Source of the DNA: Rhizaria sp. SCN 62-66
Lineage: Eukaryota
NCBI GenBank assembly: GCA_001724265.1
Contig: MEDY01000013.1
Span: 1 to 64,000, forward strand
Length of the DNA stretch: 64,000 nt
Reading direction: 5' to 3'
A model generated the notes under the pieces. The model made no database searches. It worked only from the letters and a program-made list of their open reading frames with translations, and was not told the origin of the DNA. How positions within the stretch are numbered: the first letter of the stretch is position 1; each line of letters starts with the position of its first letter. The position numbers and the translations under genes are program-made. Of this stretch, positions 3,523 to 50,904 are shown piece by piece.

Positions 3523-4686
3523 TTACGCACGCGCATTCTTCTAAATACTCATCTTGAGCTCTTCCAGCTCCTTCTGCGCGTCGGCCACTCGTGCCTCAGC
3601 CTCGCGCACGCGCGTGCTCGCGTCGCTGCGGATCGTCTCGACCATAGTAGCGTGGAACACCTTGTTCTTCTCCACCCGCGCGTCCGCCTCCTTCTTATAC
3701 TCGGCGATGCGCCCCTCGGCGTCCGCGGCCCGCGCCTCAGTCTCCGCGAGCCGGGCGTCGGCCGCGCTCTTGGCCGCCTCGCTCAGCAGCGCCTGCTGCG
3801 TCGCCGTGGCGTGCGCGGCGGTCATCTCGCGCAGCTCCGTCCTGAGCTCCAGCAGCATGTACACGAACATGCCACCTAGCGCGAGGATCACCATGGCGTT
3901 CGTGTACTGACTGCGAAGGTACTTCTTGTGGCTCACAGTCCGCGCCTCATTGTGACCGTAGCTGTGTTGACCGTGACTATGGTGGCTGTGGTGGCCGTGG
4001 TGAGTCTGGTGACCGTGGTGACTGTGGTGGGCCTTCGTCCGGGCCATGTGTTGGGCCTTGCCTGCGATTGCGCTGAGCACATGAGCGCCCGCGCTGCTGC
4101 TGCTGTTGTTATTGGTATTGCTGCTCAGATGAGTCGTTGCAGAGGCAAAGCGACGCGGGTCGAAGCCGTTGGGGGCCACTGAGACAAACCCAGCAGAGTT
4201 CTCAGTCAAAACGCGTGCTGAGACAGTGGTCGCAGTTGCAGTGGCAGACGCTGACGCTGTTGACACAGGAGCCACAGTTGCAGTAGTGAGAGAGCGGACC
4301 GAGGGGGGCGCAACGCTAGAGTTGACCGCAAAGAGCCAGTAGAGAGTTGGACCATTCTGTGACGCCGATGCAGATATGGCTGACGTAGCTGTTGACATAT
4401 TCGAGCGCAGGGTGTTGACAACAGTCAAATGGTTGTTGTTGTGACAGGAGGGGGCCGGAAACTGGCTGGGAACGCTAGAGGTGCTTGTAACAACCGTGCG
4501 AGTGTTGACCACGCCACTGCCAGATACACCGTGTGTGTACAGCAGTGCAGGCGAGGTCAGAGGCGAGAATGACCTCACTGAGGACGCCGAGAAGAGGCGC
4601 GAGGGACTGATACTACGGCCCAACGACTGGCGCGGTAGTATGCCCACAAGCTTGCTGGATAGCTTACGAGCCGTTGAGAAGCTCAT
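3523..4686 (-). CDS. Probable mitochondrion-targeted single-pass membrane protein with His-rich segment and C-terminal coiled coil (387 aa if TAG at 3541-3543 is sense)
   Basis: ATG at 4686 starts an S/R-rich, acid-free presequence-like N-terminus (MSFSTARKLSSKLVGILPRQSLGRS). It also has an HHSHHGHQTHHGHH tract, a TM segment YTNAMVILALGGMFVYML and an A/E/K/R heptad region. The TAG is followed by 5 codons and then TAA (3523-3525). Confidence 0.65.
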
Positions 4687-5447: not shown

Positions 5448-8400
5448 TTACCCCTGCCATGACTGAACACTGTCCACATCAGTCAAATCTTCGATGCCAT
5501 GAGCTTCTCCAGCGCGGTTGTTCACCGTGGCGACAGTGGTAGTCCGATCACGATAGGCGATCGCATGAGCATTCATTGCAATAGCGCTGGTCGCCGTATT
5601 CTTAATGCTCAGTGTGTCGCGGTGCGCGGTGTCGTCAGTGATGTAGTGCGCTGAGATTCGCAGCGACGGCGCCAGCGATGAGCCATACGACGACGAGTCA
5701 TCGACCACAGCAGGCGAGGTCGCCTCACCAGCGTGTCCATGCCCGCGAGCAGCGGTTCCGTCACTGTTGAGACTCACAACCGAGGCGCGATCACTGTTAT
5801 TATCATAGCGGTCACCACCATTGTTGGCACCATCGTCATCACTCTCAGAGTGTCCGTTCGCACCCGCGTCAGTGACGAACGAGTTGTTGTTCTTCGACTT
5901 TACCTTACTCAAACTATCAGCGTGAAAGCTCGTGTTGTTGTGATTGCTGCTAAAACTAGTGTTGAGTGACGCTTCGCCTTGCTCCCGCGCACGCGAGGCC
6001 CACCGCTGCATCTTTTGTACTTCGCGCCGCGCTTTCGCCAGCGCTTCGGCTGCGAGGGCACGCGCGCGGTCGGGGGAAGTGAGGCCGTTAGAGCTAGACG
6101 TGAGGCCGCCAGAGTAGTGTGCAACACCGCGTTCCGAAGACGGCTGCGTCGCTGCAACTGTGTTTGTCGTCACAGGAGCGTGAGCAGCGGATGTGTTATG
6201 CGGAGAAGTTGCTTTGTCGCTGTTTGCATGAACTGCGACGCCGACGCTGGCTGCAAGTCCCGGAACAGCTGGTGCCACAGGAGCAGTATCGCGAAGAGCA
6301 GCATTGTTTGCGTTTGAAACTGCCGAAGTCGTAAGCGCAGTAGCCGCATTAAGGCTAGCGCTGTCGTTGGCTGCCTCAGTGTTCGCGCGAGCGTTGCCGC
6401 TGGCACTGTTAACGATGTTGTGCGGCGAGCTAATGACTGACCATGCTGGTGAAGGCGTTGTCGGCAAAGCAAACAGGACGCCGTTCATCAGCCGACTGCC
6501 AACAGCGATATTCGCTGCCGTCGCGTCAACAACAACTTCTGCGTCATCGTGGGCTGTGCCGTTGCTTTGAGTCGCTGCAGTGAGTCTCCCGGTCGTTGCG
6601 ACAACAGCAGCGGCGACCTCTTGCACACGGCTAACCTTCTCAGCACTGCGACCGACTTTGCTTGACTGAGAAGATGTCGCATCAGCTGCGTCAGCGTCCA
6701 CAGCGGTCACAGCCCCATTGGCGGGGCGGTTTTTGCTCGCGGTGTCAGTGGTATCTGCCACTTGAGGCAAAGGAGGCGGTGACTCTGTGAAAGGAACAGA
6801 AACGAGCGACTCGGACTCGTTTGACTTCACCTCAACACTCGCGCCAAGAGCGGCGCTTGCGGTAGTTTTTTGCGTCGTATTGACAGTGGGCACGGTTGCT
6901 ACTGTTAGCTCCGGGGCACCAGCACTCTGCGCTCGGTAGCGGTGTGTGAAGTGACTGTGAGCAGCAGAGAGACCCCCGCCAGCGGGACCGGCAGCAACTG
7001 ATAACTGACTATACGCACTTGTCTGGCTCTGAGACGACGAGTTTGTGTTCGTGGTGGCACTGCTCATTGCGGCCATGCGTTGGCCTTGAGCCAGCGCAAG
7101 AGCACGCGACAAAACATCATTGGCTGCGGCAGCCGAACTCTTCACGCTATGCGTGCTGGCAGCGGAGCGCGGTGCATTGCCAGCAGCACCGACCCCAACG
7201 GTGAAACCTGTCGCAGGCAAGGGAGGCCGACCCAGCTTTGCAGTGTTGGTGCTGCTGCTACTTGCACGTTGCGCGTCGTTCGGCAATGCTGAGGACAGTG
7301 TTGCCGCTGCTGACGAGGGCCGCTTTAAGTTCAGCCGCGACCGGGTTTGCGCAAGCGCAGTTTCAATCTTGGGTGACAAGGGACTCTTCAACAAACTCTG
7401 ATCACGCCCAGTATCACCTGTAGTCGCGTGACCGTGAGCAGCGTGCGCATCTCCAACACGAGAGTTGACTGATGAGGGCGAGAGTGTCAGAGTTGGCGTG
7501 GGGGTCACAGACGCCTTGATGTTTGTGATCATATCCTTCAAAGACGGCCTCCTGCGAGCAGTGTAGCTGTTGTGTGAAGAGACAGTTTCATCGACGCTTT
7601 GGCTGTCGATGTTGTCAGCAAGCCCTGATGGCCGCACAGGCGTCTCGAACAGCGATGACTTGTGTACACCGGAAGAAGCCGTAACATCAGCGACATGGGC
7701 ACTGTTGTCCAACGAGTTTGGAGTACTCTCGACGCCAGTGCTCGCGGTAACATTCAAGGCAGGCGCGGCAGGAAGCGCGGTTCGAGAGACTGCGGTAATC
7801 AACCGGGGCGCTGTGAGCGCTCGCACTTGTTCTGCAAGAGAGAGCTTTGCAGACAAACTTTGCCTCGACCCTGCAGCAGGCTGTGGAGCAACACTCGCAC
7901 TGATGTTCTGACTAACGGCGTCAATGTTACTGTTTTGTACGGCGGCAGAGCTGACTCTGACATCAGAGGCAACATGTTTCTCAGCGCCAGTGTTGCGCAA
8001 ACGCTGCACCATTGAACGCAAAGACTCACGAGGAGCAGTTTCAGGAACGGCGCCCCAGCTACTATTCGTACCATTGCTGCTGATGTTAGAAGCACTTGCG
8101 GCGGGGTTTGTAATGCTCGTACGATACGTGCTGACCATCTCACTCAAACTCACACGCGCAGGCTTGACTACGGTCTGAGAAAGTGAGACGCGCTTAGCTT
8201 TCAGCTGATCATGCTGCTGCTGTTGCACCTTGACAGGAGAGGCTACCTAAACTGGGGAGCGCATATGTTGCCGTTGCTGCCCAGCTTTAGGATTGAGAGA
8301 GCCAATGCCCTTATTCGGACTCAATGCCGACCTAGACGGAGCATTGGGACGGTTCAGCAAACGCTTCAGCGGAGACTGAGGCGGCGAAGCAATTGCAGCT

Positions 8401-9643
8401 GCCAGCAGTGCGTGCGCCGCAATCTCCATCGTTGCGTCCTGTAAGCTTAGGCTACTCGCTTGTTGCTGAGGCAGTGGCTGCTGCTGCTGCTGCTGCTGTT
8501 GTTGTTCTTGGTGTTGTTGTTGCTGCTGCTGCTGAAGCATGAGTTGATCTTTGAGTTGTTGCTGCTGCTGCGCAACAAGACTCGTCAGCTGAGAAACCGC
8601 ATCGGCCAGGCTGGCAAGCTCTTGGTTCTGACTGGCGGACACGTTGTTCGCGCTCTGACCACTTGCGGTAACGCTCTGCTGAACGTCGTTGCGCGGAGTA
8701 ATCCCGTCGGTTTGGCTTGTGCCGGTGTTCGTGCCCATGCCGAAGCTCATGTTAGAAACTGTGTTGGGATGAGCCGCGTGAATTGGACTCACGGCTGAGT
8801 CCTGCGTCGCTGACCCGACTGAAGGCACGACTGTGATGGTTGGAGCCTGACTCGTAAACGTGGCAACATTGTCAGCGCAGGAGCCTGTTGAAGGAGACTC
8901 AACCGTTGCCACAGGCACAGTGAACGCAAGCGTGCGCTCAACTTGCAGCACCGTATTGTCATCGTCAACTTCACCACGCTTCTTGTGAGCATGTTGCTGC
9001 CCACGGTCACGGATATCAGTCACCTCACCGGCACTTTGCTCATGACTGCTGTGCTGTCTGCCACTCGCGGTCGCCGTCGCGCGGGGAGACACAATGCGGT
9101 TCACTGAGTCAGCACTCTTGTTCAAACCACCCATGTTGCCGGTCGTCGTGGTTTGGGAAGGAATGGTCGTGTGAGCAGACTTCTCGTCATCGCTATCAGC
9201 AAAACAGCCGTTTTCATTCGCGCTCAATGCTGCAGCATTGGTATACACAAGCTGGCGTTGATCGCGCTCACTGCGTTCACGGTCACGAATTGCTTTCTTT
9301 GCACCTTTCGCATCTGCCTTTGCTTTGGCTTTGGCTTCAGCCCGCTTCTAAGCAGCAATAGCCTCAACGTTAGCAGACGCTGCCGCTGCAGCAGAGTCAG
9401 CAGCCATGAGGGCGACAGAGGCGACGCCAAGAGAACCCGCTGGAAGCGTCGACGCGGCTCGCAAGCGTTGTGGCATAGCGCGGGCGTAGTCCAGTCCAGT
9501 CACGTACTCGTCGACAAGTGAGCGCAGCATACGCTGGCGCTCCGTCACTCCGCGTTCGACACCGAAGACACGGGCGGTACCGCTGTGCGAGTCGCGGGCT
9601 GCGTTCGTACCCGTATGTGGATCGTTTAAGAACGAAGCATTGC

Positions 9644-9719
<76 letters not shown>

Positions 9720-11423
9720 ATGATTATTATTTGCGTGTGCGGCGGCGATTACAACGGCAGACGAGGCGTGCGCGCGCGTGCCAGTCTTTTTAGTCCGACG
9801 TTTACTGTCGTTCGTTGCATTCACTGTATTGCCACCCGGGACATTGCCATTGCTGACGGCGAGACCCTTGTCGTGACTGATGACAGGAGTGGTAATGTTA
9901 TTCGGAAAGCGGTCACTATCATCGTCGCTGCCGTCGCTGAAGAAGTCCGAGTCTAAGTCACTCGTGCTTGAGTCAGACGCACTGAAATCGTCAGGCTTTG
10001 GCCCCTGAGACCAGACAGCAGCACCTTTGGACAGATAGTTCGTCTGAGATTGAGTCGCAGCAAACATCCCTGAGCCGGCGACACTGGCGACGATGTCAGC
10101 GCCGTCGTAACCACTGACGTCGTTCTCGTCGTCGTCGGATCCGTTGGCCGTCACTGCTGTGCCGTACGCAACGTAGCGGCCTGCGCTCGCCCTTGCGCCG
10201 GGATCAGGGCCAAACAAGTCGGTGAGGTCGTTGTCGGCCCATACACGTGCGCGCTCAGTCGCAATCACCTTCTGCAGCCGATAGTCGTCGTCCACACTGC
10301 CATTCGCGGTGTTGTGACCGTGGGCAGGAGAGCGCAACATATCCGAGGCGCGCTTAAGCCGCCTCTCGCGCTTGCTCAGCTCCGCATCAAGTGCACCACC
10401 AGTGGCACCAATCACCGCAGAAACAGCGCGATTGGCCTTCGCAGCAGCAGATGCCGCGGTCGAGGCCGACAGCGAGGCGGACGCGATGAGGGCGCCGGCA
10501 ACACGAGCACTCACAGCGGACGCGGCCAGCGGCGCAGATGCTGCGGAAGAGGAACTTACCGACGCGGCAAAGCGAGACGCGGAAGCAAGCGGAGTCAGGT
10601 GTTGTTGAAGTGTCCGGCTTGAATGTGCGGCAGTGATGCGACTTGACTTCTCGGCGTCGCGCAACGCGAGGCGGCTCAATGGCGACAAGTCGCGCATTGA
10701 CGACGATGAAAGCGACATTGCATGCGCTGTCACATGCTGAGCAGTTGGATTGTGTGGGCGTTGCTGCTGCAAAGGAGCTACTTGCTATTGTTGTTGATGG
10801 TGCTGCTTATGGTCGTGTTGCTGTGGATAGGGCGTGACTGCCAGCAGTGACCGCGGGTGAACAGTCTGCGTGAAGTCCTCACTGTCAACACCAACAGCGC
10901 CACCCCGAGCGCTATCGCCGCTGCCATGGACGCTCGGTGGTTGCGACTGCGCCCGCTGCGACTGTGGTGTTGACCGCGACAACTGCGCCTGTTGTGAGCC
11001 GTGTGTCTGCGATGATTGAGACTGTGGCAAGGGAGTCAGAAACGAGGATGCGGGCCTCGCAGCTGGTCCATGCATCGGCGTTGCAGGAACAGCTCCGTCG
11101 GTCACTGTTGCAGAGCCTGTCGTGCGAACAACCGCCGGGTCGTGAGTGTTGCTCGGCTTTCCATTGCCGATGGATATCGCGTGGGTGGGCTCGACAGAGC
11201 CAGATACAGGGGAAAGCGCAGGTGCAAGAGCTGGATCAAAACCAACAGGCAAGGCCACGCTCACTGCCGGTGTGCTAAGAGACGGCGGCGCGCGGGAACG
11301 AGGACGTGCACGCAGCAGAGGCTTGGCTGAGTAAGACATAGACGCAGAGGTTGTGGGGGCGGGTGCAAGAGTTTCGCGCCGCGCCTGGGGACCATGACGG
11401 GCAGAAGTGACACTCCCACTCAT
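5448..11423 (-). CDS. Large low-complexity/disordered protein of unknown function (1991 aa, three internal TAG codons)
   Basis: Four ORF-track fragments (10785-11423, 9348-10772, 8247-9248, 5448-8228) share one frame and are separated only by single TAG codons. Composition is uniformly S/A/T/Q/N-rich across the junctions. Ends in TAA. Confidence 0.75.
9645..9719 (-). repeat. (AAC)25 microsatellite encoding poly-Asn
   Basis: Perfect (GTT)n run on the + strand, in frame in the 1991-aa gene. Confidence 0.95.
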
Positions 11424-12032: not shown

Positions 12033-15000
12033 ATGCTTTCGCCATTCCGGACTCTTTTGAATAAGAATGTGACTCAGAAGTTGCACTCTTACCGGACGAG
12101 CTTCATTGAGATACTCTTGCCTTTAATCTTAATATTCTTTATTGGGCTCTTAAAGACCACGATTTATGACTCATTCCAATTTGATTATGTTGCTTCAAAG
12201 CCGATTGTTGGTCATTTGGATGCAAACTACGCTATGTACAACACATTGTCTCAGACTGACAGGTATGACTTCCTGTTCTGCTTTGTCGGTTCTGATGATG
12301 GTTGGGAGGCTTTTCAGTCATTTTTAACTTCACCCACGAAACCGTTGCCCCCGAATCCTGTTCAAGCCTCTCATGTACATCGGTTTAACTCCCGTGAAGA
12401 CATGCTTGCGTACAACTCAGGCCGGTATAGTATGAAGCCGTTTCTCGTTGGCGTGGTGGAGACGATTACAACGACGCCCAACAAAAAGAAGCTGGTTGCA
12501 TCTTTCGGCGAAGCCACAGAGAGCGCACCAAACACCGCTTCTGCTGTTGGAGATGATGGCGTGTTAATGACGTACAACTATGACTTGTATCAGGATAGTT
12601 CAGTGTCATACCGCTATCACCGCGACGATTTGTACGATATGTCGCAGCGGACCTGGCACACGGATTCGTACATCGTTACGGGGCCGTATGCGGTCATGCA
12701 GGGTATTCAGGCGCATTTACTGCGCAAACACGGCGCTGTGACACTCGAAGCTGTCAACGCCACCCGCAGTGACGGGTCGAGTGATTATGCCAACCGTCGT
12801 GGGAATAGCTCCGCGAGTGCGACTGGTGCTAGTAATCAGCTCAGCATTCTCTCTGTGTCGAAGACGTTTTCATATCACCTTGCCTCTGGAGCGCTTCCCA
12901 AAGGCACTGGCACCAGCTATCTCCGCAACGCCGACACTGTAGTCGCCATTTCGATCTCTATTGCGCTGCTTATCCCGTTTCTTGTTCTGGTCTCATTATT
13001 GGTTGCTGAAAAAGAGACGAAAATGGTTGAAATGCTTCGAATTTCAGGCATCACGTTGCCTCAAATTGCTTTCTCCTGGGCGTGCTATTATGCAGTCGCA
13101 GTGGTCTTCCTTGCTCTTTCAGCGTCGTTTATCTTGAGCTTTATGTTGATTCAAGACACATCAATGATTCTAATTTTTATCACTCTTGTTCTTTGTCTCT
13201 TTAACATGCTCGCAATCTGCATTCTTTTTTCGTCGCTGTTCACATCAACGCGTTCCGCTCAGCTCGTGCTGGCACTCACCCTCGCGCTTTCAATCGCGCT
13301 TATTTCCGCGATCGAATCTGCAAGGACGCGCAATAGCGACACGGACATCACTGACTCGGTCACCGGTTTGCTCGCGTTGTCGTTTGCGCCGACTGGAATG
13401 AAGTTTGCGATTTCATGGCTGATTTACATGAATCGCGTTACCGTGTCGTCGGTCACTCCGTCGGATGCTGACGTGTATATGGACGGGTATTCTTTGACCG
13501 TAAGTTATACGGCGCTGTTGGTGGGAACAGCCGTTTTTTCAATTGTTGGGTTTTATATCAATGCTGTCGAAGCGGCGATGAATGATGGTCACAGCTTATA
13601 CTCCGCAATGCTATTTCCACTGACATCAGTTTTCTCCTGTTTCAGCTGCAAAAACAAGAAGTCGAAGTGTCACAAGAGTGTTGGATTGAAGCAACGTTTC
13701 TCACGCAAATCAACTGTTACTCACGTTACGAGTGACGCTTACAATCACAAGTTGAATGCGTCTGGTGACGATGGGTCTTTTGACGATGATGATGACTGTG
13801 GCGACGACGAGCGCGACCTGTATGCGCAGCCTGCACAGTATCATCGGTGTGCGATTATTGAACACAATCCGTCCAATCTGAACAATGGTAACAGCGAAAA
13901 TAGTAGCCTTACCTCGGAAAGCAGTTGTGTTCGCATAGAGGAGGACAACGAGATCTTGCGTATCCGCAACTTACGCAAAGTATACATGCCTTCAAATGTC
14001 ACCGCAGTGAAGAGACTTAACCTAGATATCCACCGAGGTGAGCTCTTTGCATTGCTTGGGCATAACGGTGCCGGTAAAAGCACGATTCTAAACTCATTGA
14101 CTGGGTTTTGTAAGCCGACACTGGGTAGCGCGAGGATTGACGGCGTCGATGTCCGTATTTGTCGCGATACTGTTACGGACGCATCAAACAACAATATTTG
14201 TTGTGCAACTGTACGAAATTTCTTCAGTAGTGCTGCAGTGGGCCGCTCCCGTTCAAACGCCCCAGCACTTGGCATGTGCCCCCAAGTGGACATCCTGTAC
14301 CCCGACATGACTCCACGCGACCACTTCACTCTTTTCGCAAGGCTACGTGGTGTGCCCGTCAAGCGCGTCCACAAAGAAGTCGATCGCTGGCTTGCTGCTC
14401 TCAACCTACTCGAACTTGCTGACACTCGTGCTGCCGCTGCTGCTGCTGCTTTAGCTGCATCCGCCGCTGCTGCAGCAAACACGACATCACCCATAGCGCA
14501 CACGAAGGCCACTGAAAGCCCACGTTTAAGTTACACACAGGGCAACAAGGGCACTCGCGGTCGTGTTCTCGCAGATGCCCCCGTCAGCACGCTGTCGGGC
14601 GGGCAGCGGCGGTGCGTGTCGCTGGGCATCGCGTTGATCGGCGACCCGAAGCTGGTGATCCTGGACGAGCCGACGGCGGGACTGGACGTCGCGGCGCAGG
14701 CCTCGGTGCGCGCGCTGCTGCAGGAGCAGCGCAGGCACCGCGCGATCCTGCTCACGACGCACTCGATGGAGGAGGCAGAGATATGCGACCGCATCGGCAT
14801 CCTTGCCAACGGCTCGCTGCAGACCGTAGGCTCGAGTCTGTTCCTCAAGCGCACGTTCGGCGCAGGGTACACGCTGACGGTCATGAGGACACCTGAAGAA
14901 ACTCTGACTGAGACAGCCGCGCGTGGCAAGAATGCTGTTGCTGCCGCGGCTGCTGCGCTTGCTGTGCTGGAGCCGACTGCTGCTGAACTGGCTGTGCAGG

Positions 15001-18000
15001 AGGTGACTCGAGTGCGACTGACATTGTCAGGGCGCCGTATTGAACGCGCGCTAACGTCTGCGATGCCTAATCTTGTCACGCTATCTGATTTCGGTGGCGA
15101 GATGACATTTGCGATTCCAACCGAGGCTGCTCCGCATCTGTCTGAGTTTCTAGAACTTATTGAACGCGACAGGGTTGCTTTGTGCATTGAGTCGTTTGCT
15201 GTTTCCGCAACACCGCTTTCAGATGTTTTTTTCACAGTCGCGAACGCTTCTGTGGTTGATGATGACGCTCCCAATGATGTGGTTTTGATTCCGACGGTTC
15301 AAATTAAGACATGCGATTTCGCTACAGATAAGATCACCACGAAGATTAAGGTTAACAACAGCACCATTACAACAGGAAACGTATGTAACCTCGGAGGAAC
15401 GAACACCCATAGGAATATTAATTTTGATCCTACCTAGCCCTTAAACGAACGCGTTAAAGCAATGCTACGCGCATCTGGAAGCGACAACGCTGACGATGGT
15501 GCCGACATCAACGGATTTTATCCAAGTAACGAGGACCTGTGGCAAGATGATTTTGCTGGACGCCGTCTTTACGGCAAGTCGTTATTCTGCTCGATCTTCC
15601 GCGCGCTTTACTACAAACGCGCTCTGATCGCAAGGCGCGATTTTGGCTCAACCTGTTCACAGACAATCGTTCCAATCATTGCTGTCATAGCGTTTTTAGC
15701 TGCAATTTTGTTCGCTGCTATGCCAATCTCAAGCTCACGTGCTCGTGTTGAGTTTTCACTTCAAAATACCTATGGCAGCAAAGATGTACTACCAAAGCTC
15801 CCGCGCTTCTCAATGCCCATGTTCCATGGCACGACTGAAGACGACATTACTAAACTCCGAGAAGATTTCCTGCTGCTGAGTGACGTAAATGCTCATGCTA
15901 TACGTCCGTCTGCCGGTTTGATTGATCCTTCACTTTGTAACTCAACGGATGCATATAATGATGCCTTTAACACTATGTTCGCGACCTACACCGAGTTTCA
16001 GTTTTCGTATGCCGTCGGTCAGTTCTGTCACGCCAGCAATCTTTATCCAAACGTGTCGGTTCCCCAGTTTGGCTTAAACACTTCTCGTACGACAAAGACT
16101 GTCAATTCTATTGCCACAACAAATAGCAAAGCCGGGGTAAGTGTTGTTCACTCTATGTTGTTTGTCAACTCGTCAGTTGCGCTTGCACTCCAGATTGCGA
16201 CGACTGGTCTTGCCAATGCTATGCTTGTTGGTGCTCACCGCCGCCAGTCTGATGCTCTGTCCCCCGGCGAAGCGAAACCTCCACTGGCTCAACTTACTGT
16301 CAGTCACAATATTGTCGGCATCAGCTCTAGTTGGTTCTCGCTTGTTGACTTATTTAATGCATATGTGTATATTGTCAATCTTGTCACTGTAGCAATGATT
16401 GTCCTCGCATCGACTTTTGGCCACGTCATTGTTTTAGAGCGACTGAACTCCTCCAAACAACTGCAGTTGGTATCAGGCGCATCGGCATGGTCGTACTGGA
16501 TTGCGCATGCAGCGTGGGATCTCACAGTCTCACTTTTTGTTTCTGTTCCATGTATTATTGTTTTTTGTTTGATGCTTACGGGCACTGTCAAGACGGTGTT
16601 GCTTGTGATTGTCTCTTTTCTTCTCACAACCATGTCTTCGATTGTGCTAGCTTATTGTGTGGCATTATTTGCTCAGACTCCAAGCAAATGCCAGATATAT
16701 CTGTATGGTATTCACGCCATTTCAACCATTATGTCCGCTGCAATTCTTGTCGTCTTGCTTTTCTCCTCCAATGGATCTGACTTGTTCTCAACGATCGTGA
16801 CGTATGTGTGCTACGTTTTGTACATCTTGCTCTTGTGCACTTCTCCTATGGCATCATTTATTGCATTCATTTATATTTGCATTGGAAACTTGTCATTTGT
16901 ATTGTCATCTACTGCAATGTACGTGTTATTATTTGGTAGCTTCGTTTGTCTGCTGTTTTACTCTGGTCTTCTAATTATTTTCGAGAAACGGACTCGTCAG
17001 GTACGTGCTACTCTAATTTACATTGAAGTACATGTATTATGATATTGTCTGACTTGTAGACTTGTTTTGTGAGGGCGCTATAATAATATTGTTCACTTAA
17101 CTCTATATCATATTTCCGATCACTCAATTCTTTGTTCATGAACTTCACTGCACACTCAGGGATCTGCGGACTTTATCTCTTGCTCCCGACCCCCCGCCGA
17201 GCTCATTAACCCGACGCGCTCCGAACACCAACCGGTGAACGAAGACCCAGATGTCGCTGCAGAGCGCGAGGTAGTGCTCAACGGCGAGCGTGAGAACGCG
17301 ATGTACTACCCCGTGGTGTGCTACGGGCTGCGCAAAGTGTTTCCGCCGCGCCGCTTCCCGCCCGCGCCCGCGCACGTGGCCGTCAGCGACCTGCACTTGG
17401 CTGTCGCCAAGGGCGAGTGCTTTGGCTTGCTGGGATCTAACGGCGCCGGCAAGACGAGCGTGCTGCAGATGCTCACGGGAGGAATGCTGCCTACCTCAGG
17501 CGCTGCCACTGTCAGCGGCTTTGATATCCAAACTGATTCTGCGGACGTCGCTACTGTCGTCGGTTACTGCCCGCAGTTTGACGCCTTTGTGCCACAGCTC
17601 ACAGGCCGCGAGAATTTGGAGTTTTTCGCTCGCCTACGGGGCTTGTCTGGTGAACAGACTAATCTGTACGTGGCTGAGCTGCTGCTTCACCTCACGCTCG
17701 AAGGCTGCGCGGACCGCCCCGCCCAGACATACTCCGGCGGCAACAAACGCAAGCTCTCGGTGGGCATCGCGCTTATTGGTAACCCGCCGATCGTGATCCT
17801 GGACGAACCTTCGACCGGCGTGGACCCGCAGGCGCGGCGCTCGATGTGGCGCCTCATCTCGTCCACGATGGCGCACCGCTCTGTGATCCTAACCACGCAC
17901 TCGATGGAAGAAGCAGAGGCACTGTGTGATCGCGTGTCTATCATGCATGCAGGCACGCTGCAGTGTGTCGGACGCACTGCGTACTTGAAGAACAAGTTTG

Positions 18001-29200: not shown

Positions 29201-29931
29201 GCTCAACACCGGTTTTAGGTGTGGTGCGTGTGAGTAAGTGAGTGCGCCAACCCAGTGAAGTTGCACTGCACGGGCCGACGGACGAGGTATAATATATTAA
29301 TACAAGCGAAGTTGTGATGAGATTTTTTAAAAGCATACAAAAACGAGTTTTTCTATCCACAACTTGATTTGATCGGGTCAATCTGAGGATATTACGACCC
29401 ATATATTTTGTTTACATGCGTGCGCGCCTAAGCATTTTTGTACTTGTGGATGTTGTACAGTTCATATCATCGTTACCAACAACGCGAAAAAGTTCAGAGA
29501 ATATTCGATGTGGCGTTGTAACATAAAATCAATTCTTTATTTCTTGAATTTTGATTTAAATGAGCGAAGATACAAAAGCTTTGGGCGCGTGGCCACCTTA
29601 CTCCGGAGATGTGTTGTCATCGGGGTTCCTGGCCCGAAAAAATGTTGACTGACGGTCAGCGCGTGCAGCCACAGGGAGAAGGAGGCCAATTGGAGGTCTT
29701 CTAAACGCATGTCGTGTGAGTTTTCTCGTATAAAACTGGAATTTTATTAAAGCCCTTTGCGTAGATAATAATAATATTTGCATTATATGTTTGCCGACGA
29801 TGTTTAGCACGTCAAACACGTCCAGATTCATTCCTTGCTACACCTTGGCTTCCCTCTCACCCCACGTATTTTCATATCCCTCTCCTCACGTCGCTGCTCT
29901 TTCTTATTCGCTGATCGCTTGCTGCAGAGGC

Positions 29932-32900
29932 ATGTCCGCGCCCCCGCCGCCCCCGCCGGGCCTTGACATGGACTTCGGCCCCGCTGTCCCGGCCGCCGCG
30001 CCCAAGCCCGGTGGCTTGCTCGCTGGCATTCAAGGCTTCAACAAGGGCGGTCTTAAGAAGGCCACCACAGTCGACAAGTCCGGCCCCCTTACCGCCGCAG
30101 GCGCTAATTCTGGTGGCGGTGGCGGTGGGTCCTCCTCCTCCGCGTCCTCCGCGCCCTCCGGTGGTCCCCCCGGCCTCGCAGCCGCCCTCGCTGCCCGTCG
30201 CGCTGCTGCTGGCGGCGGTGGCGGCGGCGCTGCTGCTGCTGCTCCGGCGCCGATGACCCGCGGCCCCCCGCCCGCTGCCGCCGCTGCCGGTGGTCCCCCG
30301 CGCTTTGGCGCCCCCGCTGCCGCCGGTCCTGGCGCTGGTGCTGGCGCTGGCGGCCCCCCGCGCTTTGGCGGCCCTGCTGGCGGACCGCCCCCCATGCAGC
30401 AACAAAGCGCCGCCGCGGCTCCCCCGCGATTCGGCGGCGCTGGCGGTCCTCCGCCTCCGATGCAGCAGCAGAGCGCGCCCCCACCCGCGTTCTCCCGCCC
30501 TCCGCCGCCCGCGGCCGCCCCCGCTGCAGCCAGCGCGGGAACTGGGGGCCCGCCGCCGCCGCCGATGATGGACATGGACTTCGGCGCCCCTGCGCCCCCC
30601 GTGGCCGCAGCCTCGCGCCCGCCCGCCCCCGGCGGCGGCGGCGGCGGCCTCCTCGCTGGCATCCAGGGCTTCAACAAGGGCGGCCTTAAGAAGGCTGTCA
30701 CCGTCGACAAGTCGGCCCCCATCACCGCTGCCTCCGGCCCTGCGGGCGCCGCCTCCGGCTCCGGCGCTGGCGCCACTCCATCCGGCGGCCCCCCCGGCCT
30801 CGCCGCGGCTCTGGCTGCCCGCCGCGCTGGCGCTGGCTCTGGCGCAAGTAACCCCCCGCCCGCCGCTGCGTCCTCAGCGCCCAAGTGGGGCTCGCCGTCT
30901 CCTGCCCCCGCGGCCGCTGCCACGCCCGCGCCCGCCAAGTCCTGGGGCACTCCTTCCCCTGCCCCGGCCTCCGCTGCCGCCGCGCCGGCGCCCCGCCAGT
31001 GGGGCAACAACAACACACCCGCGCCTGCCCCCGCTGCGGCGGCCGGCCCGCCCGCGTTCGCCGGCGCCAACCGCGGCCCACCACCGATGTCGCCGCCCGC
31101 GGCCTCGGCACCCCCGCCCGCGCCGGCGATGGCCGCCGCCGCCAGAGCGCCGCCGCCCGCATTCACTCCCCCCGCGGCCGCCGCGGCCGCCGCGAGTGGC
31201 CCTCCGCCTGCGCCCGCGTTTGACTTCGGCCCCCCGGCTCCGGCCCCCGCAGCCGCTGCCCCTGCCCCCTCTGGCGGCGGCGGCGGCGGCCTCCTGGCCG
31301 GTATCCAGGGCTTCAACAAGGGCGGCCTGAAGAAGGCCGTCACGGTTGACAAGTCCGCTCCCATCACCAGCAACAACGCCAGCGCCGCCAGCAGCTCCAG
31401 CACCAGCGCCAGCTCAGGTGGCGGGCCCCCCGGCCTCGCCGCCGCGCTTGCAGCCCGCCGCGCCGGCGCTGGCGCTGGCGCTGGAAGCTCACCTGCTTTC
31501 ACTCCTGCGCCCGCGCCCGCGCTTGTGACTGCATCTCCCGGCTTTGGTGCCCGCCCGGCGCCGCCGTCCTTCACGCCTAGCACGCCCGTGTCTTCCGCGA
31601 ACACCGCATCCGCGCCCCCGCCCGCTTTCTCTCCTCCCATGCCCGCCGCCGCTGCTGCGCCTGCACCCGCGCCCGCGGTGCGCGGCCCCCCGCCCGTGAT
31701 GCCGCCTCACCCGACCCCCGCCGCCATGGCCGCCGCCCACGCTAACCAGCCTCCCCCCGCGGGTCCCGCGGGTCCGCCTCCGGCGGTGCCGCCGCGCCGG
31801 CCGTCGACGCTCAACAGCGCGCCCCCCACGATGCCGCCGCCGCCGGCCGCGCTCATCTCGTCGCCACCTCAGTCCGCCGCGCCGTCCCCCTTCGTCTCCC
31901 CTCAGCAACAGAGCGCGGGTGCCGGAGGAGCGCGCCCGCCGCCGCCGATGTTCTCGTCGCCTCCCCAGTCGACCACCAACGCTGCTGGTGCCGGAATCGG
32001 TGCGCGCCCCGGTGGTTTCGGCTCTCCGCCGCCGCCGATGGGCTCGACGCCGGCCTCCGCAGCCCCCACGCCGAGCGCCGCCGGCGCCGCTGCGGGCCCT
32101 GCGGCCGCGTTCGGTTACCGCCCCGCCACGCCGGCCTCGCGCCCGCTCTTCGCCAACAACGCCGGTGCTGGCGCTGGGGCGAGTCCGGCGATGTCCCCGC
32201 TCGTGTCCCCCGCGGCGACCAACGCCAACACGGCCGCCTCGGCCACGGCCGCGTCCGCCGCTGCGCTCGGCGCGCTGACGCTGCCGAACAAGCCCCCCGC
32301 GGTGGCATCGTCCAAGTACTGGGTGGCGGAGCTGCTGGTGGATCACATCATCATGAAAATTAACGACGGTCGCTCGCCCGTTGAATCGATCTTCTCTGAG
32401 CCCGGGTACAAGCCCCAGGTCGACGCCCTTTTCGCCTTCGTCAACCCGGACTCGACGATCCCCGGCGCGCCCAACGCGGTCCACGCGTCCGCCATCCGCG
32501 CCCAGCTGACGACCAAGTACTTGGACGAGTACAGCACGCTGGCCATCGCCGATGTTGTCAAGAAGTGGCTCGGCGCCGCGGCGCCCATCTTCGCCGAGTC
32601 GGCCTTTTCGGACGCGGCGCGCGTGGCCAACGGCGGCGACAAGGTCTCCGGCCTCGCCGGGCTGATCTCGCGGCTCGAGATGCCCGCGCAGGCCATTCTG
32701 GCGCAGATCATGCGCATGTGCCTGGCCATCACGCAGGCCGAGGCGCGCACTAAGATCTCCCGCGCGCGCCTCGCGCACGTGCTTGGCCCGGCCGTGTTCC
32801 GCTCGCCCATGGACATCGACGCGCTCAAGAACGTCAAGAACGTCAACTCGTTGCTCGAGGACATGATTGCAAACGCCAGTACACTGTGCGCCGCCGGGGC

Positions 32901-33003
32901 GCAGGCCCTCAACGGCGGCGTCGCGGTAGGGGCAGGCGCGGGCGGGGCGCCGCAGATGCCCGGCGGCGCGCCGCCACGCATGATGATGGGGGGACGCTAC
33001 TAA
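29932..33003 (+). CDS. Proline-rich WIP/verprolin-like protein with three WH2-like repeats and a C-terminal RhoGAP-like domain (1023 aa)
   Basis: Three copies of LLAGIQGFNKGGLKKAxTVDKSxP (WH2-type LKKA/T motif) among poly-Pro tracts. The C-terminal ESIFSEPG...IADVVKKWL...PIF...KISRARLAHVLGPAVFRS matches RhoGAP fold spacing. ATG at 29932 follows a pyrimidine tract and CAG. Ends in TAA. Confidence 0.75.
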   Translation: MSAPPPPPPGLDMDFGPAVPAAAPKPGGLLAGIQGFNKGGLKKATTVDKSGPLTAAGANSGGGGGGSSSSASSAPSGGPPGLAAALAARRAAAGGGGGGAAAAAPAPMTRGPPPAAAAAGGPPRFGAPAAAGPGAGAGAGGPPRFGGPAGGPPPMQQQSAAAAPPRFGGAGGPPPPMQQQSAPPPAFSRPPPPAAAPAAASAGTGGPPPPPMMDMDFGAPAPPVAAASRPPAPGGGGGGLLAGIQGFNKGGLKKAVTVDKSAPITAASGPAGAASGSGAGATPSGGPPGLAAALAARRAGAGSGASNPPPAAASSAPKWGSPSPAPAAAATPAPAKSWGTPSPAPASAAAAPAPRQWGNNNTPAPAPAAAAGPPAFAGANRGPPPMSPPAASAPPPAPAMAAAARAPPPAFTPPAAAAAAASGPPPAPAFDFGPPAPAPAAAAPAPSGGGGGGLLAGIQGFNKGGLKKAVTVDKSAPITSNNASAASSSSTSASSGGGPPGLAAALAARRAGAGAGAGSSPAFTPAPAPALVTASPGFGARPAPPSFTPSTPVSSANTASAPPPAFSPPMPAAAAAPAPAPAVRGPPPVMPPHPTPAAMAAAHANQPPPAGPAGPPPAVPPRRPSTLNSAPPTMPPPPAALISSPPQSAAPSPFVSPQQQSAGAGGARPPPPMFSSPPQSTTNAAGAGIGARPGGFGSPPPPMGSTPASAAPTPSAAGAAAGPAAAFGYRPATPASRPLFANNAGAGAGASPAMSPLVSPAATNANTAASATAASAAALGALTLPNKPPAVASSKYWVAELLVDHIIMKINDGRSPVESIFSEPGYKPQVDALFAFVNPDSTIPGAPNAVHASAIRAQLTTKYLDEYSTLAIADVVKKWLGAAAPIFAESAFSDAARVANGGDKVSGLAGLISRLEMPAQAILAQIMRMCLAITQAEARTKISRARLAHVLGPAVFRSPMDIDALKNVKNVNSLLEDMIANASTLCAAGAQALNGGVAVGAGAGGAPQMPGGAPPRMMMGGRY

Positions 33004-33412
33004 GAAAGTCATTAAATAGCAGGCAGTGGCTTTCACGTAAGTTCCGAAAGTGATTCAACTTGAGAGAGAGTAGTCGTCGAGGTGTTGCACATTTTTTGCT
33101 TCAGTCATCAACAGAATCAAACATTTTTATCCGGAAAAAAAAATAAGCCGAGGAGAGTGCTGACTTTTTTCGCTTTTGTTTCAAGAGAGCAGGAGGAAAA
33201 CGAGACCGCAGCAAGAACCAAAGCCCTATCAGACCAATTTTTACACAAGTATACCTTTTCATTTTCTTTTTGTCATACCAAATGATCATTGTTCAAGACT
33301 CTTATTATGCTATAAAGTAGTGATCAGAGGGTTGTTACGAAAGTATGCTCTTCAAATCATTACGCCACAATAATACAAAACAAAACTAAAACTAAAATCT
33401 CCAAAAACTTCG

Positions 33413-33585
33413 AGTCCAGTTGTAAAGGATCCGCGGCCGGCCGCGATTGGCACGCTAAGGGATCTTGTTCGGAATTAAGCCCTCCACTTAGCTGGATACA
33501 AATGTCATGAGGTTAGCTTCAGGTGTACATGCTCACTTTTGAGGACTGTTTGCGAGGCTAGCGGGCGCTGGTGTGTGCCACAGAT
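33413..33585 (+). ncRNA. Candidate box H/ACA-like RNA
   Basis: GC-richer island between convergent 3' ends with the layout hairpin (33415-33496), ATACAA (ANANNA, 33496-33501), second hairpin (33512-33562 core), ACA at 33580-33582. Confidence 0.3.
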
Positions 33586-33726
33586 GTTTCAAAAAGCGGT
33601 TTTCTATGTATTAAATATCCGAATTTAAATATAAGAATTTAAAGAATACATGTACTTGTGGATTCAAATTATTTTGTAATGACGTATCCATATATACAGA
33701 GATCATATGTGTTCTTTGAAGTTGTT

Positions 33727-36700
33727 TTAAGTAAAGATTGACATTGCAGCGTCGCTCCATAGAGCTTCGTCATCAACGTTGTTGCTGCCACCTTGAACAG
33801 TGTGATTAGCCATTGCTGCAGCCGAGCTACTCAGAGTGCTAGACTGCATCTGCAACGCCGCCAAGGCGTTTTTGTGGTACATGTTGCGTTCAGCACGCAC
33901 ATGACCTTCTTCCTCCTCTTCCTCCTCCTCGTGCTGACGAGCAAGCGCTCTATTTTGCTGTGTCTGCGCACTATGCTGTGATTTGGCTGCAAAAATTGAG
34001 TAGCGACCCTCAGTCGTCTGTATAATTTGCTTTTGCGGTACCAGTGCGTGGCTCATTTCGCGCGCCTTCTCCGCAGCAGCCTGGAGTGCCATAATTGGAG
34101 CCATCTGTTCCCACAGAAACGCGTCAGCCACCTCCTCGCTGCTACCAGTACCACTCTCCGCATGTGCACTCTTTGCAGCAACTTTAGCCCCGCTGGCAAG
34201 CGCGGCGACGTTGATGTACCTACGATTCGGGACTGGCGGCGGCATGCGAGCACTCTGTGGAGTGACTGGAGCTAGGCTGTGAGGACTCGAAACAATTGCA
34301 CTGTTGTTCGGTGACGCGACGCGTGGCGCGGCGTTTGCTTGATGAGGAGATTCAGCAACATGCTCGTCATCTGTGTTAACAATACGAGCAATTGGTGCAC
34401 TGTTGTCCCCCGTGCTGCGCCGAACAGCGGCTGCAGCTGCGTATGCGTCAAGTACACGCTGTTGCGATGCTGATACGGGCCCCCATGCACTGCTAGCGGG
34501 CGTATGGCTTTGAATAACAACTGGTTGGCTGTACGCAGCACTGACTTGGTTGCTCTTAGCCGAAGATTGCGGAAACCGGTTCATTTGGTTGAAGTGAGTT
34601 GGCGTCTGCGCCTGTGCAGTAGCAGACGGACTTAAGCTTTGGACAGCTGCAGGCTGATGACGATGCGTCTGAGGCTACCAGTGTAGCTAATATTGATTCG
34701 GAACATGTGCTTGTGTAGAGGACATTGACTGCGCAGGTGGACAAGGCTAATACCGTGACTGCAGCTGCGCGTTAGTTAGTGACTGGAACGGTGCCTGCGT
34801 CCCTGACTGCAACGCTGCTTGTGGCCGCAAAGCCGGTTGGTTTAGCGACAAAGCCGGTGTTGATAATGAGGAAGACAACGACGACGAGTACGCAGAAGGC
34901 GTTGATGCGGGGAATGAAAACACGTCAGAGTAAAATATCTGACTATCCTCGTCCGCAAGTGCAACTGTTAACGGCTTCTTTACGTTGCTCTGCTTTGGGT
35001 TACGACTATTCTTTGCCGCCGAAACTGCAGTCACCGAATTCGCAGTGTTGCGTGCTTCGCGGGGCGCAACCACTAAGTTCTTCTCCCTGGTGGTCCAGTT
35101 CTAGTGTTTTCTCGACAACTTTGAGTGTTCAAAGTCAGTGCCTTGTGTAGAGCGCACAAACTGTATCAGCTGTTCAGTCGTGTCTGAGCGGTTACGATCA
35201 TTATTTTTGGTCGTGTGCAAAAGTGGCGTTGCCAAGGTACTGCTCCGCGTCTCTTTGATTGCCTTATGACTGCTGTTCGAAGGTGAAACGTTGCTCTTGG
35301 AACCCACCACGGCTGCGTTACTCCTCAAATGCTGATTATTGTTGTAGTGTTGTTGCGCGTGATACTTTGATTGTAGCTGTTGTTGCTGCTGCTGTGTCTC
35401 ACGGTTGTAAATAGAGCGCAGAGCAGCCGTGTTGTTAGGAATGGGAGAAATGATTGGTTGTCTATGCTGCAACGGGGCACTGCTCTGCTGCTCTTGCGTG
35501 GGCGTGATCGCTGGAGCAACAGTAGCTGCATTGCTGCCGACACTCATGATCAACGATGGTGGTGCGCGCAGGTTGCTCGCCGTTGAGGTAATCGGCGTAT
35601 TAATATTATACGCCGTGCTAACAGGTGCAGTACTTTGACTCCCACGTACGTTAGGATTGTTGCTAGCCGTGCTGTCACCTACGCCGTAATTTGACTTGCC
35701 CGTCATAGTCATTAAAAGCCCGTTTGTCCAAATGCCAGCCATGCGCTCCCCGTTCGCCATGACCATCACGCCCGATCCCTCGGCCAGATCATTTGCCCAC
35801 AGTCCTTCGTGGCATGTGCCGTCAGGCCAGGTAAAGGCACCCTGTCCGCACCGCATGTTGTTGTGCCAGTAGCCGGTATAACGCGCGCCGTTGGCGTATT
35901 GCATTTCACCAAAACCGCTGCGCACAGTGCTCACAGACATCTGCTGCTGTTGCTGATGGTCTTGACTTGCGTGGCTGTTGTTAATGCTGCTGGACTCGCT
36001 TTGCGACGGTGTATCTTGTTCTGAAGTACGCCGTGTGCGCTTGACGATTACGTTGCCAGTGTAGCACGCGCCGTCAGGCCAGTTAATAGTGATGAAACGG
36101 TGTTCAGCCAAAGGCATAGGTTCACTAACTGAAGGTGTGGATAAATGAATAACTGGAGGAGTCGCGTTCATAGGAGATTGGCAAAGCTCTTGGGCAGCAC
36201 CGCGCGCGTATTGCTGTGACTGTTGCTGTTGTAGAGGATAGTACTATTGGCTCCGCACATATGCGTGCGCATATGTGTGATGGGGTTGTTGCAGCTGTTG
36301 CTGTTGATCATACGCATGTCGCTGCTGCTGACCATACGTGACGCTCTGGCTATGTTGCAACGGCTCCGGACCAAGAGACGGCGAACTCTGCGATTGCAGC
36401 TGTCCGCCGTGCAGTGACTGCGACTGCGAATGCTGCAACTGCGCAGGATGTGACTGGGAAAGCTGCAGCTGTAAGTGCTGCAAATCCGGGACCTAAGCCT
36501 GCGACTGGAGCTGGACATGCGACTAAAACTGACCTTGATCCTGGGCATCAGGCTTCAAATAAAGCCGAGACTGAGGTAATGGTTGCGTGCAAGGCGTTTG
36601 TGAGCGCAGATAATCAAGAGGACTCGGATACTGCCGGTACGAGCTGCTGCTACAATTGCTAGGACTGTTTGAGACAGCGCCAGACAGTATTGCCTTCGCA

Positions 36701-38340
36701 TTAACCGCCGGGGTTTCAAGAGTTGCTGACGGTGATGCAGGCGCCTGTGTTTGTGTCGGTGTTGCTGGTGTTGTGTCAATTGCGCGTGCAAAGAAAAACG
36801 CCGGTGAGTTGGGCATCAGCGGTGAAAGCACGTGTGCTGGAGAATGCGACTTCTTAGGAGCAGTTATCGGTGTAGTGGAAACAGATTGTGACTCATGATG
36901 CTGCGGTGGAGATGTTAAAGACAGTGGTGGCACTGGGAGCGTTTGTACAGATGATGATGACTGAGACTGGGCAATAGAAACAGTGGTTTGAGAATGAGCC
37001 GCATCTGCCGCGGATGTTGGAGAGACAGCAACACTGCTGTCGGCTAGGCTACTGTTCAGCATCACTGAGGTATTTGCGGCCGTCAATGCGATCGGCGATG
37101 GTGCAGCTGATAAAACTGCTGCTGCAGCTTCTCGAGCCGTGGCAGCAGCTGTCTGCAAAGCCGTCGGTATTAATGCGGCTGTGTACGCATCACGGAAGAA
37201 GCTCGCTGACACAGGCTCTGCAGTAAAAATGGGAGCAGAGATAACAAGTCCTGAGTAACTCCGGTAGATGGTTTCGGGATGGCTTGAGACTGTAGCCTCC
37301 GGTAGTGACTCGTTCGCCGGCTTCTCAATGACAGCAGTATTAACGGCGCTCGCATCAGCGGACACAGTCTCACGACGGATAGGTGTCACTGCCGAAGATA
37401 CAGGAACGGTCACCGCTGCTGTGACGACAAACGGGGTCAGAACGGTAGGTACTCCTGGTGGTGCGGACTCTACATGCTCCGCAGCTGTCGACCGGATTGG
37501 TGCCGTGTTTGTCGGCGCTGGCGGTGCAGGACGGCGCCGCAGTGGGAGCGGGGGCGGCTGCTGCTGCTGCTGCTGCTGTTGAGACGGCGTGCGCTGCAGC
37601 AACAGAGCCAATTCCTGCGACTGGCTCTGTTGTGGCTGCGCCTGTTGTAGCAGCACGGGTGCTGTGACGGTCTGAGTTTGCTCATGCGCCTGCTGTTGCT
37701 GTGAGGTGAAGTCAGCGCTCGAAGCTTGTTCGCTATGTTGCTGCTCAGTGAGCTGCTTGCTTGGTAATGCGTGTGCCGCTAATGCTGCCGCTGTGGGAGA
37801 CAGTAAAAGATTCAGACGCCGCTGCTGGCTCGGTTGCGGCAGCGCTGTGTGAAACGTCGGGGCGCACACTGACGGTTCCGGTTGTATCAGATCATCATCA
37901 TCATCGACGCCGTCCTCCAACTCCTGCCCAAGCGTACCTATATCGCTCTTAACACTGGGCTACACGTGAGTGTGCGGACCAGCAACTGGGCTAACCCCAG
38001 CCTCACCGTCTTTGTTAGACTCTGCGTCAGAGTCGTCGGTGTAGTCGCTGCTGAGGGAGATGTCGACTGGAAGATCGTCAAGAATCTCATGGGCATCGTT
38101 GCCTTTTGGTGCGATCGCCTGCTTTGGGGCAACGCTGGCAACGTACTGCGGTTTAGTTGCTGATTTAGGCGGCACTACTGTGATCTTAGTCTCTGATGTT
38201 GAAGTCGCGGCACCTTGATGGCACTGTTTCGGCTGCTGATGTTGCTGATGCTGCGGCTTCTGCTGCTGTGACGGTGTATCAACAACATCGACCGGCTTTG
38301 CAGCACGCTTGGACTTAACTCCAAAGAATGATAGTTTCAT
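33727..38340 (-). CDS. MORN-repeat-containing, Q/S/P-rich protein (1537 aa, eight internal TAG codons), intronless
   Basis: Single frame from ATG 38340 (preceded by an in-frame TAA) to TAA 33727-33729, interrupted only by TAG. MORN repeats at about 35715-36085: GFGEMQYANGARYTGYWHNNMRCGQGAFTWPDGTCHEGLWANDLAEGSGVMVMANGERMAGIW. Confidence 0.8.
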
Positions 38341-50309: not shown

Positions 50310-50359
<50 letters not shown>

Positions 50360-50904
50360 CGAGGCAAAGGCAGTCACAACAACAACAACAGCAGCAGCAG
50401 AGCGAAGGTGAGAGTGTGGCGAGCGCGACAGCGCCAGAGACCGCTGCGAACGTACTTGGCCCCGCCGCAAGCGACCCGTTCGTGGTCGCCGCGCAGTCCC
50501 TCCTCAGCTCCACGGTCGCTACGCTCCTGCGGCCTGCTGCGGCCGCGCGGCTGCGGCGCCGGAAGGCCGACTACGCTGCGCTCGCTGGCGCCGCGGTGCC
50601 GTACCACGCGCACGCCGGCGCGCGGCAGGAAGCTCTGCGCGCACTTGTGGCGCTGTGGCGCGATGCGGACTCCGCGGTGGCCGAGACAGCGATTGAGGCG
50701 GTCGCGAAGCTTGTGCAGCAGAGGCAGACGGAGGCGTGCGCGCTTGCCACAAGGGATAACTTCAGCAAGCAATTACCATCACAGCCTCCGCAGCAGCAGC
50801 CGGCGCCGCTGGTGCGGGCGGCGCTGGCGCTGCTGGGAGACACTGGTGTTGCGGAGGAGACCAAAACCAAGCTCCGGGAGTTCATGCAGACGCTCATGGA
50901 GTAA
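41689..50904 (+). CDS. Very large Ala/Leu-rich alpha-solenoid (HEAT/ARM-like) protein of unknown function, 3071 aa, intronless
   Basis: 9.2-kb uninterrupted ORF with GC-rich third positions. HEAT-like ends include ACLPAMADPAVAVREA, LRLLCDPAPAVAQLA, GLGDTHRALRRASVGAL and LWRDADSAVAETAIEAV. Ends in TAA. Confidence 0.75.
50311..50355 (+). repeat. (CAG)15 encoding poly-Gln
   Basis: Perfect trinucleotide run in frame in the 3071-aa gene. Confidence 0.95.

Follow-up and report, generated by a model that had tools for sequence, protein, structure and literature searches.

A probable variant nuclear genetic code with UAG alone reassigned to glutamate, traced from a MORN-repeat gene with eight in-frame TAG codons

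Introduction

In nuclear genetic codes UAA and UAG are nearly always reassigned jointly, and the few published splits that came to light give leucine, glutamine or serine. Passages of PMC11687900 list UAG-only leucine codes in the rhizarian exLh and three ciliates, UAG-only glutamine codes in Iotanema, Hartmannula, Trochilia and Protocruzia tuzeti, and a UAG-only serine code in Scotinosphaera, with phyllopharyngean ciliates among both the leucine and the glutamine users; parts of PMC5304391 likewise give UAG as glutamine in Iotanema spirale and as leucine in exLh. Where UAG is read as glutamate, passages of these two sources describe peritrich ciliates, in which both UAA and UAG have this meaning, and Blastocrithidia, in which UAR codons are glutamate or stop and UGA is tryptophan; the joint use of UAG and UAA for glutamate in Blastocrithidia also appears in a passage of PMC12153298. 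The present analysis concerns a MORN-repeat gene with eight in-frame TAG codons, located in a 64,000-nt stretch of contig MEDY01000013.1 (positions 1 to 64,000; hereafter the window), and the genome to which it belongs (G000), the assembly of an uncultured, single-celled eukaryote with 34.9 Mb in 714 contigs and GT-AG introns. UAG is almost certainly a sense codon throughout this genome. Judged from sequence, it very probably specifies glutamate in what is probably a new variant of the nuclear code, with UAA and UGA still serving as stops.

Results

The MORN gene occupies 38340..33727 on the minus strand, looks intronless, and has a GC content at third codon positions (GC3) of 0.52. The original prediction described a 4,614-nt frame from ATG to TAA in which all eight interruptions are TAG, and reading the frame gave the same result: 1,537 codons containing eight TAG, no TAA and no TGA, continuous over 4.6 kb without a frameshift, and ending in a TAA at 33727..33729 with AT-rich sequence beyond. 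Each of the remaining five reading frames over the gene contains 34-69 TAA and TGA triplets. The TAGs are codons 127 (37960..37962), 606 (36523..36525), 616 (36493..36495), 699 (36244..36246), 1080 (35101..35103), 1198 (34747..34749), 1218 (34687..34689) and 1222 (34675..34677), the last two being the pair already noted as four codons apart. Most of the product is a low-complexity chain rich in Ser, Thr, Pro, Gln and Ala. A short block of three tandem MORN-like repeats (35677..35880, minus strand, residues ~821-888; first repeat 35815-35880) makes up about 5% of the 1,537 residues. Pfam MORN (PF02493) matches with E 5.5e-12 and 45.3 bits (cut-off 22.5), best over residues 821-842, which places the domain downstream of four TAGs as predicted. 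All eight TAGs fall outside the repeats, in low-complexity sequence without alignable relatives. These eight TAGs say nothing about which amino acid is inserted.

The composition of the TAGs bears on whether the gene is decaying. It had been argued that a gene rich in CAA should on decay also yield TAA, and TGA from CGA. The gene contains 60 CAA and 101 CAG codons; CGA occurs only twice, and the TGA part of the argument weighs little. Single-base decay of the gene's own codons would make 48-54% of stops TAG, so that eight of eight has a probability of 0.003-0.008. The bases ahead of the eight TAGs are not T-rich (T 0.12-0.30), unlike the intron ends of this genome. Contigs of a run from another study (X2) cover 32940-36189, 36191-36806 and 36806-37426 with zero base differences, so the TAGs are not assembly errors; seven of the eight lie within these contigs, and the TAG at 37962 is in none of the pieces listed. 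At least half of the gene's words are present in four runs, and no RNA run is listed among them. With the possible source and its study set aside, these runs represent two studies, one of them labelled as a wastewater metagenome. Runs X5 and X8 gave short pieces identical to the gene and no diverged strain. Contigs of a poly-A RNA library (X11, 33526-33834) and of X8 (33723-33966) cover its 3' end only.

The original prediction had six open reading frames under the standard code; the gene would in fact fall into nine stop-to-stop pieces, of which six reach 80 codons and five have an ATG. In the public protein set it is represented only by a fragment of 338 aa (P0128), which ends at the fifth TAG (codon 1080). 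Among the best 150 of 23,981 matches to residues 601-1200, no orthologue extending past the repeat block was found; the other 149 align to essentially the repeat block only, and no named MORN protein can therefore be called an orthologue. By itself the locus is moderate evidence for recoding. The claim that it is the strongest single-locus evidence did not hold, as its TAGs are in unalignable low-complexity sequence and the genes for eRF1 and a CUA-anticodon tRNA are more telling. If TAG is sense, this would be an ordinary, weakly biased gene for one largely disordered protein of 1,537 residues, which, from its repeat family, we take to be probably a scaffold or adaptor.

Recoding of TAG itself is supported by genome-wide stop usage, by a TAG in an eRF1 exon and by a tRNA(CUA) gene, which also make decay to a pseudogene very unlikely. 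Stop usage was surveyed over about 0.96 Mb (about 3% of the genome), centred on gene-family matches rather than chosen at random, and each stop triplet following 50 clearly coding codons was scored by the sequence beyond it. Coding-like sequence followed 22 of 24 TAGs; one was intermediate (a poly-Gln tract), and the single one scored as an end falls within a DEAD-helicase motif, with an intron nine codons further on. For TAA (n = 56) the sequence beyond was non-coding-like in 34 cases and coding-like in three, and for TGA (n = 32) in 23 and two cases, respectively. The 58 gene ends scored thus comprise 34 TAA, 23 TGA and one TAG that turned out to be exonic. The ubiquitin-L40, HSP90 and eRF1 genes all terminate in TAA.

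Conserved exons with in-frame TAGs occur in eRF1, in kinases and ankyrins, and in both a ubiquitin-conjugating enzyme and a SUV3-like helicase. From 218 automatic candidates, a best-of-six-frames filter retained 55, of which 30 fragments were passed to Pfam, yielding 17 exonic TAG sites inside domains, eRF1 among them; TAGs at intron acceptors, and frames that proved antisense, were discarded by inspection ahead of scoring. TAG frequency per 1,000 codons is 1.49 in frames with GC3 <0.6 (a class of 10 frames in which 12 of the 16 TAGs come from the window), 0.29 at GC3 0.6-0.8 and 0.08 at GC3 >=0.8. Scans of kinesin, AAA, Ras, EF-hand, WD40, dynein AAA_6, ABC_tran and HSP90 matches gave no usable exonic TAG, and in ten dynein heavy-chain genes over 195 kb TAG occurs only in introns or wrong frames.

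A single eRF1 gene was found in the genome; two other matches belong to a pelota-like gene. Its intact exon carries one in-frame TAG in the N domain, at a column that is Glu in 106 of 117 homologues, Asp in 10, Val in one (the nearest relative) and Gln in none. Among 31 metagenome eRF1 loci, 21 are readable at this column, with Glu in 20 and Gln in one; a further locus (L245), identical to this genome's eRF1 locus down to the introns, may be the same material and was not counted as independent. The protein departs from its homologues at T32S (Thr in 117 of 117; within the loop that reads stops), G57S (117), T58K (116), L124M (117) and K130Q (114), and Leu69 is unchanged. According to passages of PMC5304391, the G of UAG is bonded by Thr32, which is replaced by Gly in Iotanema, another UAG-only organism. 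T58K and several further changes are also present in the eRF1 of a relative (P0004, at 84% identity), in which Thr32 and Gly57 are kept, so T32S and G57S may be recent, and the code of P0004 may be standard.

The eRF1 exon has a GC3 of 0.89, a class in which the chance that a gene of 435 codons carries a TAG at all is about 3%. It is conceivable, if rather unlikely, that this UAG is kept as a feedback switch, a single case noticed after the fact: weak termination by eRF1 at UAG, or a short supply of tRNA(CUA), would lead to less full-length eRF1, and lowered eRF1 would hold the balance of reading and stopping at UAG. The frameshift site of bacterial RF2 is a comparable feedback switch, and plant eRF1 is reportedly under a feedback circuit that acts by readthrough.

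A pattern search for tRNAs with a CTA anticodon gave five matches (control four), of which one is a true tRNA (58 bits against Rfam tRNA, no encoded CCA, a T run downstream), on a contig (C84) that also carries a kinase and a kinesin gene. Its nearest neighbour among 20 recovered tRNA types of the same genome is tRNA-Glu(CTC), identical at 47 of 73 positions, compared with 40/73 for Glu(TTC) and Gly(CCC) and 36/73 and 32/73 for the two tRNA-Gln. It has the same acceptor pairs 1-5 as the two Glu tRNAs and the same T stem as Glu(CTC); neither the G2-C71 pair nor the U73 that the two native Gln tRNAs have is present. Additionally, it has U11-A24, U13-G22, A46, a 4-nt variable loop without base 47, U35 and A37, all of which, the variable loop by its absent base 47, are named as E. 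coli Glu determinants in passages of PMC9976931. ARAGORN labels the tRNA as pyrrolysine because of its CUA anticodon under the bacterial table; it has U1-A72, in place of the G1-C72 of tRNA-Pyl, and a Glu-like body. A similar pattern for TTA and TCA anticodons gave three matches (control five), none tRNA-like by eye, in a type of search that may miss unusual tRNAs, for instance those with an odd D loop.

Conserved columns also point to glutamate. When seven residues were tried at ten TAG sites in Pfam domains, Glu scored best, followed by Gln (-4.1 bits), Lys (-4.3), Asp (-8.4), Ser (-9.6), Leu (-16.7) and Tyr (-17.8); over all 17 sites, the sum of Glu minus Gln is +5.0 bits. None of the 17 sites has TAG at a conserved-Gln column, the best lead of Gln being 0.8 bits. 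Five exonic TAG sites were scored separately against a profile of 63 of the genome's own kinase rows. Their mean Glu-minus-Gln score is +1.60 bits, compared with +1.73 for GAG and -0.66 for CAG codons; in random draws, five Gln sites reach the kinase sum in 0.3% of cases, and the sum of five Glu sites is lower in 45%. The TAG column in the kinase hinge (n = 50) has Glu in 37, Asp in nine and Gln in none. Several further TAG columns are uninformative: a chromodomain, a CaMK site (Ala or Lys in solved structures), ABCA (Lys in the relative), SUV3 (Asp, Ser) and Ubc6 (Asp, Ser, Glu). By proposing a search for alternation of TAG with CAG or CAA, the original prediction implied glutamine, whereas the body of the tRNA and the conserved columns favour glutamate. 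Such alternation in the MORN gene would be indecisive, since CAG-to-TAG change is expected under either meaning.

A number of observations weigh against glutamate or against the evidence for it. By individual Pfam site, Glu leads at nine, Gln at six and two are tied; the sum drops to +2.6 bits without the kinase hinge, and the kinase and Pfam tests have five sites in common. TAGs of disordered regions lie mostly among Gln; in long frames, 18% of the neighbours of 33 TAGs are Gln, compared with 24% around Gln codons and 5% around Glu codons. A ubiquitin-like copy (L238, contig C681, 2600-3700) has TAG where the genome's own ubiquitin has Gln; this diverged copy is fused to an unrelated downstream region, lies in an AT-rich stretch, and may be part of a mobile or viral element. 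At about ten TAG sites compared by eye, close paralogues or nearest relatives have Gln, Asp, Lys, Val, Leu or Thr, and never Glu. The tRNA has neither C36 nor the wobble U34, two strong Glu determinants, and passages of PMC9976931 report that in E. coli amber tRNAs bearing U35 often receive Gln or Lys. For eRF1, T32S retains the hydroxyl, and a simulation places the Thr32 contact on the backbone carbonyl (PMC5681627, in part). None of the RNA pieces listed across the MORN gene spans a TAG, and, as they may be DNA, they weigh neither for nor against expression.

Several of these points would suit a reading of UAG as glutamine, a meaning it has in Iotanema and two phyllopharyngean ciliates. The Glu-like tRNA would then be charged by glutaminyl-tRNA synthetase, or a further CUA tRNA would have gone undetected; the pattern search could overlook one whose D loop is unusual. 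The Gln-rich contexts and the ubiquitin-like copy fit this reading, as do three Gln among the close paralogues, a MORN site in locus L277 at which Gln leads Glu by 0.8 bits, and the tendency, in passages of PMC9976931, of amber tRNAs with U35 and G73 towards Gln in E. coli. However, among the 17 sites TAG is at no conserved-Gln column, Gln is found in 0 of 50 kinases at the hinge and 0 of 117 homologues of eRF1, and the tRNA is without the G2-C71 and U73 of the native Gln tRNAs. The context itself cannot separate the two residues: TAG is the centre codon of five Gln-rich and three acidic stretches, about 1-2% of the CAG and GAG there. The Gln contexts are presumably the product of CAG-to-TAG transitions at sites where either residue is tolerated, which would account for them under both meanings. 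We infer that the context of TAG records its origin from CAG, and that the conserved columns and the tRNA record its meaning. Glutamine is thus an unlikely reading, and glutamate is preferred.

An ambiguous or incomplete reassignment, with a mixture of Glu and Gln or with Glu and residual termination, would keep TAG rare and at tolerant sites. The fall from 1.49 to 0.08 TAGs per 1,000 codons with rising GC3, the dynein heavy-chain stretches read without an exonic TAG, the weak mean Pfam preference and the single tRNA(CUA) gene found are in keeping with it. Rarity also suits a plain rare codon, however, as ATA and TTA are similarly scarce in high-GC3 genes; with eight TAGs in a single frame, and another in the essential eRF1 gene, reading must be efficient, and there is no true TAG gene end among the 58 scored. 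Leaky or mixed decoding is therefore quite improbable. Still less probable, to an extreme degree, is a standard code under which the MORN gene would have decayed to a pseudogene, or its TAGs would be errors or be lost through splicing or editing. In its favour are the failure to find a full-length MORN relative among the 150 matches and the fact that TAGs at family matches elsewhere are often intron acceptors (8 of 14, 8 of 15, and every one at four places). The TAG-only spectrum without a frameshift, the absence of T-rich sequence ahead of the TAGs, the identical X2 contigs, the TAGs in conserved exons and the existence of a cognate tRNA(CUA) oppose it, and the genome-wide pattern contradicts it.

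The lineage of the organism was approached through conserved genes. Nearest relatives are 84% identical for eRF1, 64% for an ABCA transporter and 88% for HSP90, and searches with these three gave no close named relative. The small-subunit (SSU) rRNA gene (L036, contig C706, 1501-5945) extends over 4.4 kb and is very divergent and rich in AT; it contains four group I introns by Rfam and an additional unexplained insert at ~2090-2580 that may hold a homing-endonuclease remnant. Ubiquitin (L239, L240 and L244 on contigs C3, C182 and C168) is unusually divergent, with two extra N-terminal residues including Ser. It is encoded in several single units with a short tail and a TAA end; no tandem polyubiquitin was seen among these copies, several of which are at contig ends. 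The divergent SSU rRNA with its group I introns and the extended ubiquitin are both in keeping with passages of PMC6133090 that bear on Sainouroidea (Cercozoa), the group of exLh. These two hints would fit a long-branch cercozoan as one possible placement. About 11 dynein heavy-chain loci suggest a flagellate.

L182, L183 and L184 (contigs C148, C49 and C9) form a small kinase family whose genes have weak codon bias and whose products carry a Sel1/TPR-like tail. Each member has in-frame TAGs at sites that differ between them, and the family would be useful for dating TAG gains.

Three further frames of the window have in-frame TAGs. A long low-complexity gene of 1,991 codons (5448..11423, minus strand) has TAGs with first bases at 10787, 9350 and 8249 and ends in TAA. 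An ABCA-type transporter frame (12033..17042, plus strand) has one (15435), in the linker between domains, and a gene at 3523..4686 (minus strand) has one (3543) five codons ahead of its TAA, which may be either internal or terminal. The ABCA transporter as a whole (12033-18614) is split over two long frames, the second of which (17301-18614) has the second ATPase domain; in a close paralogue (L214, contig C44), two positions that are Val and Asp in the window copy are in-frame TAGs. A Pro/Ala/Gly-rich gene (29800-33003, GC ~78%), which has three WH2 motifs and, at its C-terminus, a weak RhoGAP domain, runs towards the MORN gene in convergent orientation. A 3,071-codon Ala-rich frame at 41689-50904 contains no TAG, and a Pfam scan of it gave no match. 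At 39588-39732 and 40323-40566, X2 contigs from a second, related organism align with a PDZ-domain gene and differ from it mainly at every third base. From these contigs a close relative's code could be read.

Discussion

The proposed route to this code involves both decoding partners. A tRNA(CUA) descended from tRNA-Glu would be charged by glutamyl-tRNA synthetase, and its anticodon would pair with UAG and not UAA; a Tetrahymena result cited in a passage of PMC5304391 is that CUA reads UAG only. The altered eRF1 would have lost most of its hold on UAG and would compete poorly there. TAG would then be a rare codon, served by the one tRNA gene found and concentrated in weakly biased genes and in regions under loose constraint, with the MORN gene as an example.

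A nuclear code with UAG as glutamate and UAA as a plain stop was not found in the literature searched, which included few subscription papers and no supplements. An earlier report is possible, and the code is probably a new genome-wide variant. If so, it would be a new code outside the ciliates for which both the tRNA and eRF1 are in hand, and the loss of a single stop codon would become testable, with T32S to set beside the T32G of Iotanema. There is also a practical consequence, as standard gene calling cuts the genes of this genome into pieces, that of eRF1 included; the 338-aa fragment is one example.

Among described systems, the MORN gene shares three tandem MORN-like repeats with proteins of the Pfam family PF02493, and its code can be set beside several others. 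The peritrichs and Blastocrithidia also read UAG as glutamate; their UAR codons change together, whereas here UAA and UGA end genes. Oligohymenophorea sp. PL0344 (UAG as Glu and UAA as Lys; PMC10553269, in part) is alike in having a Glu-like tRNA(CUA) that reads UAG as glutamate. In passages of the same source its UAA is also sense, with tRNA(UUA) genes and ten tRNA(CUA) genes; in the present genome, UAA ends more genes than any other stop, the pattern search showed no tRNA(UUA), and one tRNA(CUA) was found. If the present reading is true, this organism would represent a living "UAG first" step towards the UAR-glutamate and PL0344 codes. The serine code of Scotinosphaera differs, as Ser scores 9.6 bits worse than Glu here. 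The UAG-only codes of Iotanema and exLh share with it a sense UAG, UAA as a stop and a CUA-anticodon tRNA. With Iotanema there is also a change at Thr32 of eRF1 (Gly there in passages of PMC5304391, Ser here), but the tRNA(CUA) is Glu-like and Glu leads Gln by 4-5 bits. The exLh type differs in that Leu scores 16.7 bits worse, the 4-nt variable loop is not that of a long-arm tRNA-Leu, and Leu69 of eRF1, changed in exLh according to the same source in part, is unchanged. Overall, the code works like those of Iotanema and exLh and, by residue or tRNA, is a member of neither.

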